A stretch of DNA of 64,000 nucleotides. Origin: an uncultured Verrucomicrobiae bacterium. Lineage in GTDB: Bacteria > Verrucomicrobiota > Verrucomicrobiia > Chthoniobacterales > UBA10450. Shown here in pieces: positions 8,916 through 59,449 of this stretch. The DNA is taken from positions 736,001 through 800,000 of the forward strand of contig CAWIBO010000005.1 in NCBI GenBank assembly GCA_963834385.1, in the 5' to 3' direction. Position numbers and translations under genes: made by a program. Every line of letters starts with the position of its first letter. The stretch's first letter is position 1. The notes under the pieces were generated by a model. It ran no database searches, had not been told where the DNA came from, and saw only the letters and a list, made by a program, of their open reading frames with translations.

Positions 8916-12780
<3,865 letters not shown>

Positions 12781-18836: not shown

Positions 18837-21325
18837 ATGCCCCTCCCAGAAACACCGCGCCCCGCCAAAGCCGCACCCCTTACCTACGCCGAACCGCCGC
18901 GCGGCTTTGATTTCCGCCAGCTCTGGCATGCCGTCCTCGAGCGCGCCTGGATCGTCATCCTCTGCACCGCTCGCCGGTCTTTTTCTCGCGCTCGGACATC
19001 TCGCCCGTACCCCGAAGATTTATCAGGGCCACATCACGCTCGAAGTCGATGTCGCGGAGCAAGGCATCAATGCCGCCGATTCCGGCGACACCGCCGGGCG
19101 GGTCCGCTCCATGTTCCTCGCCAGCCAGGAAGCGCTCCGCACCATTGAACAGAATCTCACCAACCGTTCCATGCTCGCCCGGGTCATCCGCTCGGAAGGG
19201 CTCGCCTCGGACGAGGGCCGCGCCCTCCTTGGTCACACCGACAAAAAAGCGCCCACACCGCCGCCCGCCCCCGCAAAACCTGCCGCAGCCTCGGAGCGCG
19301 AGTCGGCCTTTACCCCCATCGAGAACGCGCTCGCCGGCGCTCTTGCCGGCATGGTCAAGCCGGTGGTCCGTCGCGGCACCCGCCTGATCGACGTTTATGT
19401 CACGCACACGGACCCCGCCATGGCCCAGCGCCTGGTCGAGGCGGTCGGCCGCGAATACATCCGCGGCTCGGTGGCCCGCCGCGCTTCCTCCACCCAGGAC
19501 ACCCTCCGTTATCTCCTCGAGGAAGAGGAACGGCTGAAAGCGAATTTGCAGAAGAGCGAGGCGGCCGTGGCCGAATACAAAGCGAAGACGCCTGACGCCC
19601 TCCAGCTCGGCGGCGGCGCCGCCTCCACCGGCAGCCAGCAGGGCGCCGGTTCGGGCTCGGGCGGCAGCCGGGGCGGGTTGGTCGAGGATCGGTTGCAGGA
19701 AATGAGCGGGAAGTTCACCGGGGCCAAAACGGAACGGCTCCGACTCGAGGGCGAGCTCGGGCCAGGTCGAACGCGCCGGGGAAGATGTGGACGCGCTCCT
19801 CGCCATTCCCAGCATCGCCAGCGCGCCTGTGGTCATGGACCGCCGCCGCGAGCTGGCGCAGGTGCAGGCGGCCGTGGCCACGCTTTCCCAGCGCTACAAG
19901 GAACAGCATCCCCGCATGATCGCGGCCAAGGCGGCCCTCGAGGAAGTTCAGGCCGCCCTGAAACGCGCCGTGCTCGAGCAGCCCGCCACGCTCCGCAACG
20001 CCCTCCAGCAGGCTCGCGCCACCGAGGAACAAATGGCCGCCGCCGTCACGGAACAGGAGAAAGCCGCCATCGCCCTCAACCGCGCCGCCATTGGCTACCA
20101 GGAACTGGCCCGGCAGGCCGAGACCGACCGCGCGCTCTACGAAAGCGTCCTGCGCCAGATCAAATCCACCGACCTCAGCAAAGGCGTAAAGAGCAACGCC
20201 GTCAGCGTCGTGCAAAATTCACCCTTGCCCGGCCGCCCGATCAGTCCGCAGCCCATGAAAACGATCATGCTCGGCCTTTTCGGCGGTCTCGCCGCCGGCC
20301 TCGGCGTCATCTACGCCCTGAACATGATCGATCGTTCCCTGAAAACGGTGGACGAAGCGGAATCGAACCTCGGCATGCCGGTGCTCGCCGCCGTTCCGGA
20401 AGTGAAAAATCGCGAAGCGTCCAGCCGTCCGAAGGAGGAGATGGAGGGCGAGATCGGGAGCGCCAGTTACCGGCTCCTTGCGGAAGCGCCGGAAGGCCCT
20501 GCGGCCGAGGCCTTCCGCAACCTGCGCGCCGCGCTTTCCTTGCTCGGGCCCGAGGCCGAACGTCGCGTTTTCCTCTTCACCAGCGCGCTCCCGGCGGAAG
20601 GCAAAAGTTTCACCAGCGCGAATTACGCCCTTTCCCTCGCGCAGCAGGGGCACAAGGTGCTCCTGATCGACGGCGATCTGCGCCGGCCGAGTCTCGACAA
20701 GATTTTTCGCCGGGTGCTTCCCCCTAACGCCCGGCCCACGGATGAGTTCGGGATCGTCGATTACCTGATCGGCAACACCACCCTGCAGGAGGCGATGCAT
20801 CCTGTCTCCGCCTCGCAGGTGGACGTGCTCGGGTCGCGCGAGAACCGGCAGGCCACCGTCACCGCCACGGGCGGCGAACTTTTCCTGCTCGCCGGCGGCC
20901 AGCGCGCCCCCAACCCGGCCGAGCTGCTCAGCGGCCACGTCTTTGCCGAGCTGGTCGCGGCCGCTTCCAAGCTTTTCGACCGCGTGGTCATCGACAGCGC
21001 GCCCGTCCTGGCGGTGAGCGATACCCTGCTCATGACCGCCTACGTCCAGACCGTCTGCATGGTGGTGCGCTCCCGCAAAACCCCGCGCAACGCCGTGCAG
21101 CGCGCCCTCGCCATGATCGCCGGCACCGGCATTCGCCCGGCCGGCGTGATCCTGAACCGGATGCCGCGCCAGCGCGGCGCCGGCTACTATTATTACTACG
21201 CGTCGCCCGGCTACGGCGCCGGCGAAGGCGCCTACAGCGGCGCGGGGTATGAGAGGAAGCCGGCTGGGCGCAGCCCGGCTGCCGGTGGTCAGAAGTCTGA
21301 AGTCGGAAATCGGAATTCAGGCTGA
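18837..21325 (+). CDS. wzc: Polysaccharide co-polymerase/tyrosine autokinase; frameshifts near 18965 and 19760
   Basis: YKEQHP, AEAFRNLR, Walker A TSALPAEGKS, LLIDGDLRRP, VIDSAP and C-terminal YYYYY cluster. Confidence 0.9.
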
Positions 21326-21646
21326 TCGCACAAGCGCAGCCGGCTGCCCGCGAGCTGCGGAAGCTTTAGGTCTTAAGCTTTAAGTTTTAAGTGTGCGCGC
21401 GCGCGCTGCGCGGCATCTTCCCCCGCGGAGGGACGAGCTTCTGCTCGTCCAAGCCTGCAGCAAACTAACCAATAACCAATAACCAATAACCAATAACCAA
21501 TAACCAATAACCGCGCCGCCCCCGCCGCCCATCACCGATCACCGATCACCGATCACCGATCACCGATCACCGATCACTGATCACCGATCACTCGCGCCGT
21601 CCCGGCGCCCCCCGGCCTCCGACCTCCGGCACCCTCCGACCTCCGG
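21288..21646. repeat. Mosaic heptamer/hairpin junction with REP-like half
   Basis: TTTTAAG-like tract, GGACGAGC-TTCT-GCTCGTCC hairpin, (TAACCAA)n, (TCACCGA)n, 17-mer hairpin core and (CCGACCT)n. Confidence 0.9.
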
Positions 21647-21895
21647 CTAGCCTTCATTTTCCTGCACGCGAGATCCATTCCCGATCTGCTGATGCAGGCC
21701 GGTCATGGTGAGGAGCGGTAAAATATCGAAGCTCTCACCCTCGTCCTTTGCGTTGAACACAATGACGTAGCCGGCCTTATTCGGCGGAAGGGCAATATAA
21801 TCCCGGTGGGGAACGGAATACTGAAGCCCGTCTGCCATTTTCAGAACAAAAGGCAGATTACTCTCCACCGCTCTCTCAATCTGACTCCGCGTCAC
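21647..21895 (-). CDS. Small hypothetical cargo protein (82 aa)
   Basis: Lower-GC ORF, PFVLKMADG..YSVPHRDYI, sandwiched between repeat junctions. Confidence 0.7.
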   Translation of the reverse strand: MTRSQIERAVESNLPFVLKMADGLQYSVPHRDYIALPPNKAGYVIVFNAKDEGESFDILPLLTMTGLHQQIGNGSRVQENEG

Positions 21896-21959
21896 AACGC
21901 AAACAATATCAACGGCCGCCCGGTCCTTTCAACTCCATTCACCGCCTGGCGGGAACAGT

Positions 21960-22198
21960 TATCGAAGGTGAGATGTCAGTGATCAGCGGTCAGCGCTCGC
22001 CCTTCCGATCTCCGACTCCATCTTCCGGCTGCTTCGCAGCGCCTTTCAGCTTGTCAGCTTTTCAGCATTTTCCCCTCTCCGCTCCCGGCCTCCGACTTCC
22101 GACTTCCTCCCCCTGATAACCGATAACTGACAACTGATCACCGCGCCGTCCCGGCGCCCTGCCTCTTAACTCTTAATTCTTAATTCTTAATTCTTAAT
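21960..22198. repeat. Mosaic heptamer/hairpin junction
   Basis: (TTTCAGC)n, (CCGACTT)n, (GATAACC)n, 17-mer at 22141 and (TTCTTAA)n. Confidence 0.85.
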
Positions 22199-24128
22199 TT
22201 CCCCCGTTCCCCAACAGATCCCCAAATACACCGCCACATAAAGCTGGATCGAAAAGATCTGTAACGGAAAATCCACCAGCGCGTGCAGCGCCACCCCGCC
22301 CAGCGCCAGGACCACCAGCGGAACCAGCAACCGATGCCGCGGCAACCAGGACGGCGGGGAAGAATTTTCGATTCTCGATTTTCGATTCTCGATTGCTCCC
22401 TTCAGCTTCTCGCGTTCTCCTTCCTCCCATTAACCGATAACCGATAACCGATAACCGGCTGCCCGCAGCCTACCGACAACTGATCACCGATTACCGGCCG
22501 CTCCGCGGCCCTTGTCAGCTTTTCAGCGTTTTCTCCTTCCTCCCCATTAACCGATAACCGATCACCGATAACCGGCTGCCCCGCAGCCTCCACCGATAAC
22601 CGATCACCGATTACCGGCCGCTCCGCGGCCCCTGTCAGCTTTTCAGCGTTTTCTTCTTCTTCTTCCCCACTAACCGATAACCGATCACCGATAACCGGCT
22701 GCCCCGCAGCCTCCACCGATAACCGATCACCGATAACCGGCTGCCTCCGCAGCCATCTCCCATCTCCTATCTTCCCGGCCGCTTCGGCCGCTCGCAGCAG
22801 CCGCCCCCCCAAAGAACAGCGCCGCCCAGAGCGCGCCCCCCAGCCACCCCCATTCCAGCAGCGTTTGCAGATAATCCTGGTGCAGATACCGCCACCCTTC
22901 CCGCAGCTCCGTCCCTTCCCCGCGCGCCACGTGCGGAAAGATGGTGCGGAACGTGCCCGGACCGTACCCCAGCAGCCCGGCCTCCGGCACCCCGCGCAGC
23001 GCCGTCCGCGCCGCCGGCCAGCGCAGGTCCTGAGCACACTTTCCCCGGTGTTTTGCCAGCGCTCGATCGGACGATCCAAACGGCTCGCCTGCCCAATGGC
23101 GTAGATGGCCACGACCAGCAGCAGCACCGTGGCCGCGCCGGTGATCTTCTCCGCGCCCCGCATCAAGCCCGCGCACCCGCGGCAAAGCTGCGACGATCAG
23201 CACCAGCATCAGGAGCAACCCGATCGCCTGCGCGGCCCGCGACGTGTTCGAAACCACCGCGCCGGCCGTGACCAGCGCCGCCGCGATCCAGCCCCCGCGC
23301 ACCAGCGGACTCGCGCGATGATGCAACGCCCGGTAAGCCAGACCAAAGACCACCGGCAGGACGAGGTTCAGGTAGGCGCCCGCGTTGGCGTGATAAAAGT
23401 AGGTCGCAAAGAACTGCGGCGGACCGTAACGCGATTCACCCCAGAAAATCATCTCGGCGCCCGTGCCTTTCTGGAGCAACCCCAGCAGCGCGATGGACGT
23501 GCCGGTCAGGGCCACGCCCGTGAGCAGACGCAGAAACCACTGCGGACGCCGGCAAAGATCAGCCACAAAGAGGAGCACGCCCAGGAGAAGCGTGGCTCGC
23601 GTCATCCAGGCGAGACTTACCGCCTTGTCCGCCGACCCCGGCCAGCCCGGCCAGGCCTGGTCAATCGGCACCCAGAGATCAAACTCCGTGTCATAGATCC
23701 CCTTCCCATTCCAGGCCATCGCCCATCCGAGGAGCAGCAAAGCCCCCACGATCCCCCAAAGGACCCACCGCCCCGTTCCCCTTTTTCCTTTTTCCTTTTT
23801 CCTTTTGCCTTCCGCCCCCCTCCTCTTCTCCGACCTCCGACCTCCGACCACCGATAACCGGCCGCTTCGCGGCCTTCTTCCCAATAACCATTAACCAATA
23901 ACCAATAACCGGCGGCTGCCCCGCAGCCGCCCCCACCCACAGCAACAGCACCGCTGCAAGCATCCATTCGAGGATCCGGCCGCTCTCCAGCGTCGTGGTG
24001 CCGTAAGCCCACGGCGCCCAGACCAGCGCCACCACCAAACCCCACCCGGCCACACCGCCCAGCAGCGTAGAAAACTTCCAGCCCCGCGGCAGCGGCGGCA
24101 GCCATTGAATACGCGGTCGACGCGACAT
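22187..24128 (-). CDS. O-antigen ligase/Wzy_C family membrane protein with two internal repeat insertions and frameshifts
   Basis: [30 protein letters not shown] and [13 protein letters not shown]-terminal [17 protein letters not shown] resumes at ~22369 after the repeat block, stop at 22187. Confidence 0.8.
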
Positions 24129-24183
24129 GCGGCCAACACTAAGCCAGGAAGAACCCCGGAAGGAATCGGAAGTTGGTTACTTG

Positions 24184-24612
24184 TTATTTGTTATCAGTTA
24201 TTGGTTCTCGCGCGAAATTCGTTCCCGTTGCCCCGGCGCGTTTAAGATAAGCCATGTAGCCATTCAAGAGACGGACCGCCGTGCTGACGAGATCGCGACC
24301 CTCTTCGAGCATCTCACTCGAAATCATTTTCTCGTCCTGCGCGGCGATCAGATGATCGAGGACTTCCCAGCATGAGCCGCGCGCGTTGCTGCAGAATTTC
24401 GCGTTATCGAGATGATGAAATCGTCCGTAACCCTCCGCGATATTTGCCGTCGTCGAGCGTGCCGCGCGTAAGATTTGATCCCCCAGACGGTATCGCTCCT
24501 CTTTCGGGAGCGCCGGGATTACGGAGCCGGAAACGAATTTCCGTAACTCACGACACGCCTGCCAGCACTCAAGATCTTCAAAGCTCCGAATGGGGGCACG
24601 TTCACCACTCAC
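24184..24612 (-). CDS. Four-helix-bundle protein (23S rRNA IVP/Avd-like family)
   Basis: SFEDLECWQ, LPKEERYRLGDQILRAARS, ANIAEGYGR and ARGS motifs. Confidence 0.92.
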   Translation of the reverse strand: MSGERAPIRSFEDLECWQACRELRKFVSGSVIPALPKEERYRLGDQILRAARSTTANIAEGYGRFHHLDNAKFCSNARGSCWEVLDHLIAAQDEKMISSEMLEEGRDLVSTAVRLLNGYMAYLKRAGATGTNFAREPITDNK

Positions 24613-24825
24613 CGGCTAACGTTATCAGACCGGTCAATCCTCCCGACCAATAACCCATAACGAGTAACCAATAACGATCTTCCCTCACCGCCTCCCAATA
24701 ACCAATAACCAATAACCAGTTACCATTTCCCCTTCTCATCGAGCAGCCTTTATTGTAATTTCAAGAACCGCTTTTCGCCGCGCCTTGCCGCCTCCAGGCA
24801 GCGGGCGGCGGTCGCCCCGCACTCC

Positions 24826-26347
24826 ATGCTCGCCACCGATCATCTCGACACCCAGCCATCCGCGCCGATGGCCGTCGAGCCGATCCCGCCTCCTGCGCCG
24901 GTCCGGCCGGCCCCGGCCCCGACCCAAAGCCGCTGGCGCCGGTTCGCCCGCACCGCTGTCCGGCAGGACTGGTCCGCGCCGGCCCTTTGCCTCCTGATCG
25001 ACGTCGGCCTTTGGAGCGTGATCTACGGCACGACCGCCTACGTCCGCGGCGATTCCTTTTATTCCACGCCGCTCCAGTTTGCGGTCATCAACCTGATCCC
25101 GCTCGCGGTTCTCTTTGCCGCCCTTTTCATCATTGGCGGATACGATCGCCGGACCCCGATGCGCAGCCTGGTCTATACCAGCGAACACATCCTGGCCATG
25201 ATCACGGCGGCCGTCGTCTCCTCCCTCCTGATTTACGCCGCCGCCGCTTACGACCAGCAGATGCGTCCCAGCCGCGGCGCCCTGCTTGATCAGCTTCATC
25301 CTCTTTTCTCCGCTCTCCCTCATCTACCGCCGGATCATCTGGCGGTATCTCGCGGTCTCGACCGCCAACCGCGCGTTTCTGGTCATCGGCGCGGGCGAAC
25401 TGGCTGCTTCGTTTTATCGGGCCTACAAAACCTCGCCCAACCGCCAGCGACTCGAGTTCGTCGCGCTCGAACGCGACCGGGTGGGCGAACCGATCTTTGG
25501 GCCCGGGTCACCGATCATCGAGGGCGACCTCGCGACCAAGCTGGAACGGCTCGACTCCCAGTATAGCGGCGTGATTCTGGCGGAAGCGGTCGATCGCCTC
25601 AGCCCGAAGCTGCTGGATCGTTTGGTCCGGACCCAGTTTCATTCCACCCGGGTTTACACCATGGAATCGTTTTACGAGGCGCACTGGCGACACGTCCCGG
25701 TGCAGGCGCTTGACCCGTTCTGGCCGTTGCAGACCGGGTTCCAGCTCGCCAGCATCTCGCCTTATCATTACGTGAAACGCCTCTTCGACATCCTCCTCAC
25801 CGGCCTATTGCTGGTCGTGTGTGCCCCGGTCATGGCCTTGATCGCCGTTGCCATCTGGCTTGAGACCGGCCGGCCGATCATCTTTCGTCAGACCCGGCTG
25901 GGGCGCGAGGAGCTGCCCTTCAGCGCCCTGAAGTTCCGGACCATGTTTTTGCGGACGGGGGAAGAAGCCGGGGAAGACATTTACACCCGGCAAAACGATC
26001 CGCGGATCACCCGGGTGGGCCGGCTCCTGCGCAAGCTGCGTCTGGACGAACTGCCGCAGCTTTGGAACGTGTTCCGGGGCGAGATGAGCCTGATCGGTCC
26101 CCGGGCCGAGTGGGACCGTTGCGCCGAGCGTTACGCCGCCGTGATCCCGTTCTATCATTTCCGGCACCTGGTAAAGCCGGGGATCACCGGCTGGGCCCAG
26201 GTCAATTATCCGTATGGCGAAAGCGACGCCGACGCGATCGAGAAACTAAAGTTCGACCTCTACTACATCCGCCACTACTCCCTGAAGCTCGATCTCATGA
26301 TCGTCCTGAAAACGATTCACACCGTCCTTTTCGGAAAAGGAAGGTGA
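24826..26347 (+). CDS. Priming polyprenyl glycosylphosphotransferase (sugar transferase); frameshift near 25285
   Basis: [38 protein letters not shown] and DLYYI motifs. Confidence 0.92.
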
Positions 26348-30991: not shown

Positions 30992-32176
30992 TTAATTTTG
31001 TTGCAGCGATCGATACAGATCGACGAGCGCGTCGGCCACTGCGCGTCTCGAGTAACACCTTTCTCCCATCTGTCGGCCTCGTTCAGACATCTCAGCGGCC
31101 GCCTTGGGATTTGTCAGTATCCAGTCAATCGCATCAGCAATGGACTCCGGGTTTCGTTCGACGACCATTCCGCCATCCACCGCACGGACCTCACTGCTGA
31201 TTGCTACTTCGGGAGAAATGATCACGGGAATGCCGGCTGAGTAGTGCCTCCGCCGGCGCAATGCCGAAATTCTCGGAGGCAGAAGGCAAGACAAACACTT
31301 TTGCAGCTGCGAAGGCGGCGGCCTTTTCCTCCGGCCGTAAATGACCTGTCCACACGATGTGCCCCTCCAGAAACTGTTTCGTAACGAGTCTTTTCAGCTC
31401 GGTGACAAACGATTCCTCACCATCGCCGGCAATGACAAGCAATAAGGCAGGATGCTGATTGAGCAGTTTACCCAACGCTTCCAGCAAAAGCTCAATCCCT
31501 TTCTTCCGATCGATTCGGGAGAGGAACAGGATTACATCCCGATGCGTGACACCAGGAAAGCAATTACTGAAGGCCGCTGGCCCGGCTCTTTTAGGCACAG
31601 CCACCGGCAGAGGAATGATAGCTGTGCGCTTCACTGCGACCTCACGCCCAACATCAAGTGCTTCAGCCGCCTCCGCCTCCGACGTAAAATGCAGGGCGGC
31701 AGCTCCGCGAATCATTGGAAGCTCGACAACCTTTAGAGAAAGCTTTTTTGACCAAGCCCGCCGATTTGCCAAGCCCCATCGATTCAGGACACCAAGCGGC
31801 CGAATAATATAGGGAACGCCCGCTCGCCATGCAGCAGCAGCAGCAGCCGTGCTCAGAAATGAAAACACGGCATGAATGTGAATTACATCATACTCTCGCG
31901 CATGCGTCCGGAGCCAAAACGCCGCGCCGATCGAAATCTTGTATCGCAAGACGTTGCGCGGGAAGTACACGAAGTTGACGCCATCTTCCCGGATATGCTG
32001 GCCAAGTGGAACGGTCTCAGCCTGCCGTCAGGGCCGTTATCATCAGTCGTCAGAATTGTGACAGTGACACCGTCGCTTGCCAAGGCGCTGCAGATAGCCT
32101 TCACAGCGAACGTCGGGCCACCCTGGTGACACGAAACGGATGGGATGACGTGAAGAATCTTGAGGGTCGGCTCCAT
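30992..32176 (-). CDS. Glycosyltransferase family 4; frameshifted
   Basis: KILHVIPS..GGP, FLSRIDRKKG and ENFGIAPAEAL across three ORFs. Confidence 0.85.
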
Positions 32177-37125: not shown

Positions 37126-38302
37126 TTAACTTAACACTTTCGAGACCGCTTGGCAGAGTGTTTCCTCCGTCATAGCAATATCAAAGCGCTGCGCCTCTTT
37201 AAATAGCACATTGCGATCCCCAGCTTCGTCAAGCAGTGCGCGAAGCTTCGCCCCGAAGTCACTGCCGTTCAGCTCCGTAAAAACGTCCCCGATCTGCCTG
37301 TTCCTTACTACATCAGGAGCGCATCCGACCCTATCGCTAATCAAGACCCGTCGGCCGCATGCGATCGCCTCGTTGACGGCAAGTCCCCATGTTTCATTGC
37401 GGGCCGAAGGGAGAACGAGAACATCACCGACCCGATAAACAATCGGCATCTTCGTCTGATTCTGGAAGGGAAGAATGCGAAACATATTGGGCGACGTGGC
37501 AGCAATCTTGGTGATTTCGCCTCCCAAAGCGCCGTCCCCAACAAGCACCAACGTGAAATTGGGGATTTCGAGACGACGTATTGCCTCCATGAGCTCTATC
37601 GGTCGCTCAGGCTCAAATTTGCCTGCAAAACAGCAGCACTCGGGTGGTTGCTGCAATGCCGTGCCCCTTACGCCAGACACCCGCTTCACGCTCAAGTTCG
37701 TTGTTGGCTCGGCGAACCGATTCACTTCTATCGAATGAGGACAATAGAACAGTTTCGATTCAGGCACGCCGAGAGCACGATAATAGTCGTAATTGTGTCT
37801 TCCCACATAAAGGCAGCCAGCCATCCATGAGAAAGATCCTAGACAGCCCATACCGTTTCAAATTCCAGCGCCAGCCCGGGCTACGATCGAGTAAATGCGA
37901 ATCACCCCGGAATAAGACCGGGATTTTTCTTTTGTAAAAGTAACGTGCCGCCTTCAAGTGCGAACAGAACGGATACCCGGTTAGGTGCACAGCATCCGGC
38001 GCCCAATGGTCTATTCCGTGGACCAAACTCGGATTGCGCAGCCCCCAGAAATGATGAGTTCCAGGCCGGCGCGCCCTGTTAGCGACAAGCTCGAAGTCGT
38101 ATGCTTCAGTTAATGGAATATCCCACTTAATTTCACATCCAAATCCATGATCAAGACTCGCTTGGTTAGCGGCGTGCCATGTAAAAAAGACCTTTATCTC
38201 AATATCTGATCGCGCAGCTAAGCGTTGATAAAGAGGCACATAGTATTGAATGGGATGTGAGACAATGATCGCTAGTCGAGGCGTCTTTTGTCGATTCGCC
38301 AT
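37126..38302 (-). CDS. Glycosyltransferase family 4; frameshifted
   Basis: SHPIQYYVPL and ETWGLAVNEAIACG motifs. Confidence 0.85.
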
Positions 38303-50360: not shown

Positions 50361-51227
50361 GTGAAAGCGCTCAAACATGGCGTGAAGCACGTTTTATGGC
50401 GAGGGCTGCAACTGATGAGTCTCGGCCGTGAGGTAGCCGAATTGAGAGTATTGCGTGGCCCCGCGAAAGGTGTTTGGATGGAAATTGATCTTCGCAAAGA
50501 AGGCTCCTATTGGCTCGGAACTTATGACCAGTGGCTATTGAGCCGGATTCATTTGGAACGACTGGTTAAACCGGGCCACGTCGTTTGGGATTGTGGCGCG
50601 TACATTGGATATTACACGGCTATTCTTCGCCGGTTGGTCGGCGATAACGGCCAGGTGATTACGTTTGAAGCGTCCTCAAAGAACTATCAACGGGTAGCAC
50701 GACTGCCCGAACTCAACGGCTGGAAAAATGTGATCGTGCTTCAAAGGGCCATTGGCCCAGATCATTCAGTCATTGAATTTGTGTCCAACCTCGCCGGAGG
50801 CAGCGGACCATACGGGCTGACTAAGACATATTCAGATAAAGACGTGCTCGAAGTCGAAAAAGTGCGGTGCGTGGGATTGGATGAATTGGTTTACGAGCAG
50901 CAATGCCCGATTCCGGACTTTATGAAATTCGATCTCGAGACTGCGGAAGAGTTCGCATTGCATAACGGACCGAGGCTTTTTTCGGAGAAGCGCCCCCTGC
51001 TGCAACTCGAATTGCACGGTGAAAAGGCCCCTGCCGCGACGGGACAATTTCTTGAGAGGTATGACTATGCCGCGTGGGACGTACTCCAGTTGCCGCTTGG
51101 CACACCGCCTTTCTCCCTTTCAGCGTGTCAGTTTTTCAGTTTTTCAGTTGGATCGTTCGACCATGAACGAGCCGAGCACCAGCACGTCCATCAGTTGGAA
51201 AAGGAGAAAGTAGAAAGTCCAAAGTAG
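50361..51227 (+). CDS. FkbM-family methyltransferase, opposite strand; C-terminus runs into a repeat tract
   Basis: WDCGAYIG, FEAS, MKFDLE.AE and LELH motifs. Confidence 0.85.
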   Translation: MKALKHGVKHVLWRGLQLMSLGREVAELRVLRGPAKGVWMEIDLRKEGSYWLGTYDQWLLSRIHLERLVKPGHVVWDCGAYIGYYTAILRRLVGDNGQVITFEASSKNYQRVARLPELNGWKNVIVLQRAIGPDHSVIEFVSNLAGGSGPYGLTKTYSDKDVLEVEKVRCVGLDELVYEQQCPIPDFMKFDLETAEEFALHNGPRLFSEKRPLLQLELHGEKAPAATGQFLERYDYAAWDVLQLPLGTPPFSLSACQFFSFSVGSFDHERAEHQHVHQLEKEKVESPK

Positions 51228-51553
51228 AAGACTGAGACAAGGCGGCTTTTCACCCTTTTCGCTCTCCCGACCCTTTCTACCTTCCACCTTCAACTTTCTC
51301 CCTTTCGCTCGAGCAAGAAATTACCGAGAGCGAGGACGTCCATCGGTTGGAGAAGTAAAAGGTGCAAAGTCCAAAGTAGAAAACTGAGCAAGCGGCTTTC
51401 AGCCTTTTTGCTCTCCAGATCCTTTTTACTTTCCACCTTCAACTTTCTCCTTTTCGCTCGAGCAAAAAACTACCGAGAGCGAGCACGTCCATCTGGAAGA
51501 AGAAGTAGAAAGTGAAAAGTCCAAATTAGAAGCTGAGCAGGGAGCCGATCGCC
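51144..51553 (-). repeat. Array of three displaced carbamoyltransferase C-terminal tails separated by heptamer-rich spacers
   Basis: ATGGACGT starts at 51492, 51343 and 51191 encode MDVLALGSFLLERKGES*, MDVLALGNFLLERKGES* and MDVLVLGSFMVERSN*. Confidence 0.9.
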
Positions 51554-57395: not shown

Positions 57396-57900
57396 TGCTG
57401 GGAGTGGAAGATAGGGTCACGGAGCAGGTGGCAAAAGCTGAAAACTAGAGTCAGAAAGCCCGGAGGAATGGGCATGGAGTGACAGCCGGAAAGCGGATGA
57501 GTCGGCTGGTGGCATTTAGCAGGCCGGAGACCAGTTTGCGATCAAGACCTGACAGTTGTGGCGAAGGCTGCTGGCTCTTTCTCCGCACGCTTTTCGGAAA
57601 ATTGTCGGACAATCTGAGGCTCGTAGAGAATATCGGTTCGCACGCAGATTGCGGGCGGCAACGTTAGCAACACTAACAGTATCGCCGAAGGTGCAGGAGT
57701 CGTTCGAAGGCCAGTCTCGACGGTGTTCGTCATAATCGATGACCGACGCCGCTCGATCTTCGAGGTGGCGAAAATGCTGCATCAGTTCTCGCTGAGAACG
57801 CGAAGCTTCCTCAGACCGTGATCGATCGCGTTGATCGAGACTTCAGCGGGAAAGCCGCATGCTCCACGCGTTCATGAAAACCCTGGAAAGCACATAGCCG

Positions 57901-58030
57901 TGCTCCCTGCTCCCTGCTCCCTGCTCCCTGCTCCCTGCTCCCTGCTCCCTGCTCCCGTGCTCCGTGCTCCGTGCTCCGTGCTCCGTGCTCCGTGCTCCGT
58001 GCTCCGTGCTCCGTGCTCCGTGCTCCGTGC
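57901..58030. repeat. (GCTCCCT)n(GCTCCGT)n heptamer tract
   Basis: About 18 near-perfect 7-mers directly after the helicase stop. Confidence 0.95.
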
Positions 58031-58044
58031 GTACCGGCGGCGCG

Positions 58045-59356
58045 CTAGCGCCGGCCGAACGATCGCGGGCCGCGGGTGGAGGCGAAACCGCGCGGACGCT
58101 GGCCGCTCCGGCGCGCCGCGGCTTCGCCGCTGCCGCGGGAGCTGTTGCCGGGCGATTTTGGCTCGATCCGCGGACGCGCTTCGCGCCGGGGTCCGCGATC
58201 TTCCCGCGGCGGCGCCGCCGCGTTGTAATCGAATCCTTCCGCCCGTTTCCGGACAATCCCGCGCCCGATAAACCGCTCGAGCGAGCGCAACGGTCCCTGG
58301 TCTTCCGGGGTGATGAAGCGAAATCGCATCGCCAATCGCCTGGGCCCGGCCGGTCCGGCCAATCCGGTGCACGTAATCCTCGGAGTGCATCGGGAAATCG
58401 TAGTTCACCACGTGCGAAATGCCGTCCACATCGATCCCGCGCGCGGCGATGTCGGTCGCGACCAGCACCCGGACCACGCCTGACTTGAAATCTTTCAGCG
58501 CACGCAGCCGCTGGTTTTGCGATCGGTTGGAATGGATGGTGCCGGTCTTGATCCCGCTGGTCTCGAGCCGGCGCGCAATCCGGTCAGCCCCATGCTTGGT
58601 CCGGGTGAAGACCAGCACGGTGTCGAAGCTCGGGTCTTCCAGCAGATGCAGCAGCAACGCCGGCTTCAGGTGCTGGCGCACTTCGTAAACGAACTGGGTC
58701 ACGGTCTCGGCCGGGTTGGCCCGCCGCCCGATCTCCACCGTCTTCGGTGAATTTTGGAACTCGTGGGTCAGACCCTCGATCTCGCGCGAAAGCGTGGCGG
58801 AAAACATCAGGGTCTGGCGTTTGGCCGGGAGCGCTTTCACGATCCGCCGGATCGGCGGCAGGAAACCCATGTCGAGCATCCGGTCAGCCTCATCCAGGAC
58901 GAAGAACTCGACCCCGGAGAGGTTGGCGGCTCCCTGCTGCATCAGATCGATCAGACGGCCGGGCGTGGCCACGACCAGGTCGACCCCGGCGCGCAAAGCG
59001 GCCATTTGCGGGCGTTCGCTGACCCCGCCGAAGATGGTGGCCATGCGGAGCGGCAGATGTTTGGCGTAAGCCCGGACGTTCTCCTCGATCTGCGCGACCA
59101 GCTCGCGCGTGGGCGCGACGACCAGGGCGCGCGGACCGCGCCGCTGACCGTTGGCGGGGGCGGCGGCGAGTTTGGACAAAATGGGCCAGACAAAGGCGGC
59201 GGTCTTGCCGGTGCCGGTCTGGGCGATGCCGATGACGTCGTGCCCGGCGAGGATGGGCGGCACAGCGGCCAATTGGATCGGGGTCGGCTCTGTGTAACCG
59301 GCCTCGGCGACGGCTTGCAGGATCTCTGGGGAAAGGTGGAGGGAACGGAACGGCAT
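58045..59356 (-). CDS. DEAD-box RNA helicase (RhlE-like); frameshift near 58325
   Basis: Q motif, AQTGTGKT, PTREL, DEAD, SAT and HRIGRTGRA motifs. Confidence 0.93.
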
Positions 59357-59449
59357 AAGTGATTACTGTCGCTCAATTTAGGGGGTTTTGCCAGCGGCGG
59401 AATCGCTGCTGGCGAAATGACGAAGGACGGATGACGAAGGACGAACTTG

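Follow-up and report, generated by a model that had tools for sequence, protein, structure and literature searches.

A repeat block in codon phase within an O-antigen-ligase-like gene of a Chthoniobacterales genome may encode an expanded loop

The window analyzed here is the whole stretch of 64,000 nucleotides at G000:C5:736001-800000, taken from a 2.9 Mb MAG of five contigs with a GC content of 0.64. It contains an EPS locus in which a gene for a putative Wzy_C/WaaL-fold membrane protein (O-antigen-ligase or polymerase-like, here called the ligase) is flanked by a Wzc-type tyrosine autokinase and a Bac_transf sugar transferase, with glycosyltransferases close by. This polysaccharide-locus arrangement is common to relatives (synteny). 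The nearest named relatives of the ligase gene are in Chthoniobacterales/Verrucomicrobiota MAGs, and a single intact ligase ORF is present at 89 of 91 orthologue loci. As assembled, the gene in the window consists of five frame segments and two repeat blocks (Table 1); its stop codon sits within an (ATTAAGA)n array at 22164-22199.

A profile of nine orthologues was matched at positions 12-461 of 468 by five window segments across three frames, with nothing lost in between. The Pfam model Wzy_C (PF04932) scored 27.3 bits on the window piece, compared with a cut-off of 31.7; two of four orthologues scored above this value (39.3 and 32.9), one below it (25.6) and one had no match. The AlphaFold model of an orthologue, which is not the window protein, had a pLDDT of 82.4 and a pTM of 0.87 with an alignment of 70 sequences. 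Its top match in the PDB was WaaL (7tpg_B; E 4.6e-5, TM 0.50/0.57), followed by FtsW/RodA; a sequence search of the PDB with a profile of six orthologues gave 0 matches. The structural comparison suggests that the ligase orthologue has a polytopic fold like that of solved WaaL. An alignment of 70 orthologues shows no variation at the H, D, T, E, W and G of the motif LH.DY.QT..EWG, and the motif is present in segment D of the window gene. We take the His of this periplasmic-loop motif to have a role in Wzy_C/WaaL enzymes.

Table 1. Positions in the window of the ligase gene, its segments and repeat blocks, and other frame-split genes.
Feature	Position	Strand	Remarks
Putative Wzy_C/WaaL-fold membrane protein gene (O-antigen-ligase or polymerase-like), EPS locus	22187..24128	-	orthologue profile
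Segment A: N-terminus, TM1-TM2	23936..24128	-	frame starting 24140; its residues 24-86 match profile 12-76
Block 1: hairpin GGCTGCGGGGCAGCC + (GGTTATT)n, hairpin GGCCGCGAAGCGGCC + GGTTATC/GGAGGTC heptamers + (AAAAAGG)n	23770..23935	-	first loop predicted to be cytoplasmic
Segment B: conserved core	23183..23769	-	frame starting 24139
Segment C: conserved stretch	23031..23165	-	matches orthologues only in frame starting 24138; frame changes at both ends (G4 run, GG run)
Segment D: periplasmic loop with invariant H..D..QT..EWG motif and TM helix ending FFGG	22801..23030	-	profile, orthologue alignment
C7 (sense G7) run, candidate 5' frame break	22804..22810	-	within 22727-22814
Block 2: insertion in last loop predicted to be cytoplasmic	22346..22800	-	455 nt, ~151 codons vs ~20 in orthologues
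Tandem array, 2.8 units of 117/123 nt	22415..22754	-	unit = 42-nt module (hairpin + 3.5 heptamers) + 81-nt module
Hairpin A', 16-nt form, loop CTCC	22739..22754	-	15 nt in three sister copies; extra T at 22746
3' interval, sole stretch from which a +1 change leads back into the downstream ligase frame	22403..22431	-	29 nt
(ATTTTCGATTCTCG)x2.2 heptamer pair array, 3' edge of block 2	22364..22394	-	common to related strain's contig
Segment E: last TM helix and conserved C-terminus	22187..22345	-	orthologue profile
Frame-split metH, Wzc, sugar transferase, two glycosyltransferases	10407-12760, 18970-21280, 24922-26344, 31242-32170, 37279-38278		conserved-gene comparison

Most of block 2 is a tandem array, for which TRF gave a period of 123 with 92% matches and 3% indels. 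It contains a nested array of period 42 (22550-22754; 4.9 copies, 67% matches), as well as runs of 3.9 copies of TAACCGA at 22431, 22548 and 22671. A blastn search of the genome with the unit 22548-22670 found copies at 22431-22539 (92.9%, 112 nt) and 22671-22741 (98.6%, 71 nt); because the copies lie there, the unit periods are 117 and 123 nt. TRF and blastn thus reproduce the repeat units and periods reported by the first-pass annotation. No other full copy of the 123-nt unit was detected by blastn in the 2.9 Mb genome; heptamer runs alone recur. Read on the gene strand, the block is a series of modules, in each of which about 3.5 GGTNATC heptamers come after a hairpin of 15 nt (GGCTGC-GGG-GCAGCC or GGCCGC-GGA-GCGGCC), with linkers rich in purines. 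The basic module of 42 nt corresponds to 6 heptamers or 14 codons. All arrays of the block are in direct orientation, and they contain no ORF of their own.

The ligase segments on either side of block 2 share one frame, which has 10 stops over 22403-22800 and 11 over 22346-22800. The frame one base further along the gene strand is free of stops for 132 codons (22403-22800) and then reaches a TGA at ~22403; the stop counts of the three sense frames of the block are 0 for this open frame versus 6 and 10. The stop counts and the profile agree with the earlier statement that the flanking segments are co-framed and that the open repeat frame is offset by one at both ends. In five intergenic repeat blocks of 85-130 codons, all 30 frames contain at least one stop and mostly 3-6. 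The indels between the units of block 2 leave the frame unchanged: changes of -2 and -1 lie nine bases from each other, and a further step measures 3 nt. Furthermore, the open frame reads EAAGQPVIG and AAERPVIG in a module phase that matches block 1, which lies in the frame running on from the conserved N-terminus (segment A) and reads AAGQPPVIG.. and AAKRPVIGG... Because the modules keep codon phase, the block is probably read as a loop, or was so until very recently. The GC3 of the open frame is 0.60 versus 0.73-0.87 in the flanking gene, and this test favours the open frame weakly.

Two single-base changes connect the ligase to the open frame. A 1-nt deletion anywhere in 22727-22814 together with a 1-nt insertion anywhere in 22403-22431 lets the frame run on for 280 codons up to the natural stop, which neither change achieves by itself. 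The first-pass annotation had proposed, as one of its alternatives, that two compensating errors hide a translated insertion, with the C7 run (~22804) and ~22411 as the error sites. This alternative is the best supported one: the two-change read-through exists, gyrA and dnaB of the same assembly carry indel errors, and both named sites fall within the frame-restoring ranges. Within the 3' range, the CCC run at 22426-22428 is CCCC in both sister units, which makes it a candidate break site. At the 5' end the extra T at 22746 is a further candidate; since the resulting loop resembles that of the neighbouring hairpin type, it may be a genuine variant. A word-indexed protein search with the open-frame translation of the block, covering near-length and longer proteins, found nothing at E<=1e-3. 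With phmmer, 12 of 1.84 billion representatives matched at E<=1e-3; the six that were inspected are low-complexity repeat translations and not ligases. No intact homologue of block 2 was found in the protein collections searched.

The first-pass annotation had also suggested an alignment with orthologues lacking the block. Compared with 91 of these, block 2 is a pure insertion between profile positions ~405 and 407, the flanks being covered without loss. Block 1 is likewise a pure insertion (profile ~62-70) of ~50 residues, built from modules of the block-2 type. Both blocks lie in short K/R-rich loops, at profile positions 61-70 and 397-416, for which the alignment of the 91 orthologues gives K+R counts of 2.4 and 5.3 versus D+E counts of 0.1 and 1.3. 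Short loops rich in K/R account for 70 of the 468 profile positions, and the charge pattern alternates regularly. By the positive-inside rule the two block-bearing loops are predicted to be cytoplasmic. These are also the length-variable loops of intact orthologues: the block-1 and block-2 loops are longer in 11/91 and 20/91 of them, with extensions of up to 29 and 25 residues, respectively. The inserts in the window (~130-135 residues in block 2 and ~50 in block 1) far exceed any of these extensions. Some of the orthologue loop inserts are hairpin-forming, and in another genus GAAGTCA heptamer-like DNA is present in the matching loop of an intact 488-aa ORF.

The repeat vocabulary of the two blocks is concentrated in this part of the genome. 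For three types of hairpin, 8/11, 4/5 and 7/14 of the genome-wide matches fall in the window, as do 19 of the genome's 55 perfect heptamer arrays. Hairpins and heptamers fill the local gene junctions, and most of the other arrays in the window sit at gene ends. Among 41 genomes, three consecutive GGTNATC units occur only in the genome itself (28 matches) and in one genome of the same order (6 matches). Among the papers listed by a literature search on heptanucleotide and tandem repeats in Verrucomicrobia, none describes heptamer arrays of this sort for that group.

Several other arrays were recorded in the course of this analysis. Degenerate GTCAGAA-type heptamers (21288-21320) form the very end of the coding sequence of the Wzc-type kinase and continue into an intergenic repeat block. 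A DEAD-box helicase ORF (57872-59362) runs into an (AGCACGG)n array of ~19 units (57898-58030), which reads as a C-terminal tail of ARSTEHG and AGSREQG heptads. In the 2-contig genome of the same order (G030:C2), GGTGATC arrays start inside the final codons of genes and provide the stop codon, giving ..IGDR*. In the window's own genome, an intact gene does carry heptamers in frame: an AATCGAA x3 array lies inside a full-scoring PrmC equivalog (247.9 bits in one stretch; G000:C2:1204003-1204023), in the linker before the SAM-binding motif, and the same heptamers are also found just upstream of the prmC gene. This example is in line with translation of block 2. On contig G000:C5 the orientation of the GGTNATC arrays is forward between 2.6 and 84 kb and backward between 379 and 810 kb. 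The GC skew of this contig flips sign near 470 kb, and the orientation of the arrays mostly follows the skew, with an exception at 379 kb. The window also contains a 149-nt tandem repeat (51181-51539; 2.4 copies, 84% matches). Short arrays nearly identical to the (TCTTAAT)n array that holds the ligase stop are very abundant in one soil metagenome (summed depth ~430), with unrelated flanks.

Directly upstream of the ligase is an IVS-like cassette with a PF05635 (23S rRNA IVS protein / four-helix-bundle) gene at 24184-24612. Its arms are inverted GGTTATT-type arrays at 24168-24205 and 24646-24725, which are 31-38 nt long and 79-84% complementary. Between Wzc and the ligase, which are neighbours in relatives, lies an 82-aa ORF (21647-21895, minus strand) without a family match. 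Inverted heptamer arrays enclose this ORF as two nested pairs (21300-22105). The PF05635 cassettes have their heptamer vocabulary in common with block 2. However, they consist of inverted arms and a gene, whereas block 2 has direct arrays only and lacks an ORF of its own.

The adjoining cassettes, the shared frame of the flanking ligase segments and the very stable RNA predicted for the sense strand of the block (-209.5 kcal/mol, z -8.95; equalled by 0 of 100 shuffles) would all be consistent with removal of the block, whether by intron- or IVS-like RNA excision, by DNA excision or by ribosomal bypass, so that the ligase segments are joined. The first-pass annotation had raised such a removal, but the searches went against it. 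An Rfam search of the block, introns included, gave four sub-threshold matches at chance level and none at the gathering score, no recombinase or intein is encoded, and the block has no usable flanking direct repeats. To our knowledge, IVS excision does not religate RNA, and we know of no ribosomal bypass gap that comes near 455 nt. Removal of the block is thus extremely unlikely. The sole terminal inverted repeat of block 2 (12 nt, 92%) was considered as an excision signal and rejected, as it is at chance level.

The frame breaks have to be viewed in the light of the quality of the assembly. The sole copy of gyrA is split between frames (model positions 1-700 and 701-798), as is the sole copy of dnaB (2-385 and 387-434), and gyrB carries in-frame stops. 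Among a relative's proteins with an orthologue-like match, 9 of 71 were multi-frame; two of these look like repeats or paralogues, which leaves 7 of 71 frame-split, gyrA and dnaB among them. In the window the fraction is 6 of 12 conserved genes, including the ligase, versus 5 of ~67 elsewhere in the genome, and metH has two frameshifts. The breaks in gyrA, gyrB, dnaB and metH are certainly assembly errors and not biology. Since the sole gyrA and dnaB copies and half of the conserved window genes are frame-split, single-base frame information is unreliable here. Low coverage, a mixture of strains or a nearby contig end are possible sources of the local excess.

The local rate is about one frame change per 1.8 kb of conserved coding DNA. 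The ligase has five in ~2 kb: one within block 1 (in 23770-23884), one at a G4 run (~23160-23182), one at a GG run (~23026-23035) and one at each end of block 2. Because three of these five lie in 0.6 kb of repeat, reading them as errors requires a several-fold enrichment of errors in repeats and homopolymers, which is plausible. In a noisy long-read MAG of this kind, frame breaks are not safely read as biology, and calls of a pseudogene or of a phase switch are unsafe.

A real and recent inactivation of the gene is nonetheless possible, though on the unlikely side. Loop expansions that were tolerated would then have been followed by genuine homopolymer slips, and the gene would be a young pseudogene or a fixed OFF allele. 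The assembled ligase frame does stop 25 codons past FFGG and meets the 10 stops mentioned above, five frame changes in one gene are many, the breaks are denser in the EPS region than elsewhere, and EPS loci are often dispensable. On the other hand, the conserved ligase segments are all intact and have no nonsense codon, and metH, gyrA, gyrB and dnaB are broken in the same way, which cannot be biological. The first-pass annotation had regarded a decayed pseudogene with additional real lesions as an argument against a hidden translated insertion. Three more frame changes are indeed present, but they have lost their force with essential genes broken likewise in this assembly.

A comparison with a related strain also speaks against inactivation. 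An independent short-read contig of this strain, from a soil metagenome, spans 22262-22400. It takes in segment E and the adjoining 36 nt of the block, and over these 139 nt it shows 4 differences and is ungapped. Of the 12 gene differences listed against the related strain, 11 are synonymous and fall at third codon positions, and the other changes L to I. As the junction is shared and 11 of these 12 differences are synonymous, the ligase is under purifying selection while bearing at least the edge of the block. The same contig bears on the possibility that the block, or its copy number, is an artefact of assembling noisy long reads over repeats. The assembly is error-prone, and no independent contig crosses 22548-22952: a search of public reads listed three soil-metagenome runs with small word shares and no RNA run, and the short contigs from these runs do not cover this interval or the mid-gene frame changes. 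However, the contig crosses the boundary between segment E and the block, the units differ by substitutions and indels like real diverged copies, and block 1 carries matching modules. An artefact is thus very unlikely.

Among known systems, the nearest analogues of block 2 are the coding repeat of NeuO and the GGGNATC/STRR arrays. In E. coli K1, the (AAGACTC)n tract of NeuO allows full-length translation only at a repeat number divisible by 3; tracts have 3-53 copies, and three units encode seven residues (PMC13001214). The ligase resembles NeuO in having a 7-nt unit within the ORF of a surface-polysaccharide enzyme that is translated only if the frame is kept. In NeuO, in contrast, slippage is proven and the tract is single, long and perfect and lies at the 5' end, whereas the ligase has short, mixed and imperfect arrays with hairpins, amplified as 117/123-nt units in internal loops. 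The GGGNATC/STRR arrays of Xanthomonas and Nostoc are described as typically having ~4 units each and as mostly non-coding and near stop codons on the sense strand (Rehm et al. 2015, PMC4692102). They are similar in their 7-nt unit with a NATC core and their few-copy arrays, and most arrays in the window and in the same-order genome G030 follow their near-stop pattern. The units in our genome have GG and not GGG tracts, so a G-quadruplex is unlikely, and, unlike the arrays in that description, block 2 is intragenic, in codon phase and located between two conserved coding segments. A further likeness is to REP/BIME elements, in that short GC-rich hairpins are mixed with other motifs at junctions and are locally clustered; unlike in REP/BIME, the stems here are 6 bp, the loops 3 nt and the 123-nt unit is confined to a single locus. 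Three Y1_Tnp matches, as candidate RAYTs, are present in the genome.

The likeness to NeuO raises the question of a contingency switch, in which the ligase is turned ON and OFF by slippage of heptamer units or of G/C runs, and the assembled sequence would represent an OFF or mixed state. The phase switch contemplated by the first-pass annotation keeps weak support from the heptamers in a coding setting: each unit shifts the frame by one (7 = 1 mod 3), NeuO of E. coli K1 operates in this way (PMC13001214), and the target is a surface-polysaccharide gene. Furthermore, a metagenome contig from another run differs by 8 nt in the length of the neighbouring (TCTTAAT)n array at 22191. The part that did not hold is the tract itself. 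No long perfect tract was found; the tracts are short and interrupted, with no more than 3.9 perfect copies (block 2) or 4.6 (block 1). Since heptamer tracts are missing from the 29-nt 3' interval, the frame cannot be restored by slippage of units alone. Together, these results make a switch distinctly unlikely.

On balance we think it somewhat more likely than not that block 2 is a translated low-complexity loop expansion and that the breaks are consensus errors. The junction-repeat vocabulary of the lineage, GGTNATC runs and 15-nt GC hairpins, would have been amplified locally within the ligase gene through slippage between similar arrays. Block 2 would have grown where a short cytoplasmic loop joins the final two membrane helices, and the smaller block 1 in the first cytoplasmic loop, with the modules holding codon phase (42 nt; periods of 117 and 123 nt). 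The translated product would be an acidic low-complexity loop, ~130-135 residues beyond the orthologue length, which may be located on the cytoplasmic face and away from the periplasmic active site. For the offsets of +/-1 at the block ends, and likewise for the remaining three frame changes of the gene, the most likely origin is single-base errors in the consensus of a noisy long-read assembly. Several points count against a translated loop: five frame changes exceed even the local rate, the 3' correction is confined to 29 nt, no intact copy of the block turned up in the protein collections searched, the GC3 of the open frame is lower than that of the flanking gene, and a net acidic insert of 150 residues in a positive-inside loop might disturb the topology.

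A bolder and unlikely version is that the junction repeats are a coding-compatible family whose 42-nt modules and 117/123-nt composites colonise and expand in cytoplasmic loops and tails of real proteins yet remain translatable, so that long new peptide segments arise from non-coding vocabulary, and that this family gives the exopolysaccharide ligase/polymerase a built-in ON/OFF toggle, since every slip of a heptamer or homopolymer changes the frame. For the translated loop expansion the consequence is simpler. Translation of the block would mean that a polytopic enzyme can accommodate ~130-135 extra loop residues made wholly of junction-repeat vocabulary. If true, this would be a concrete case of non-coding repeats turned into protein sequence, with heptamer arrays in codon phase.
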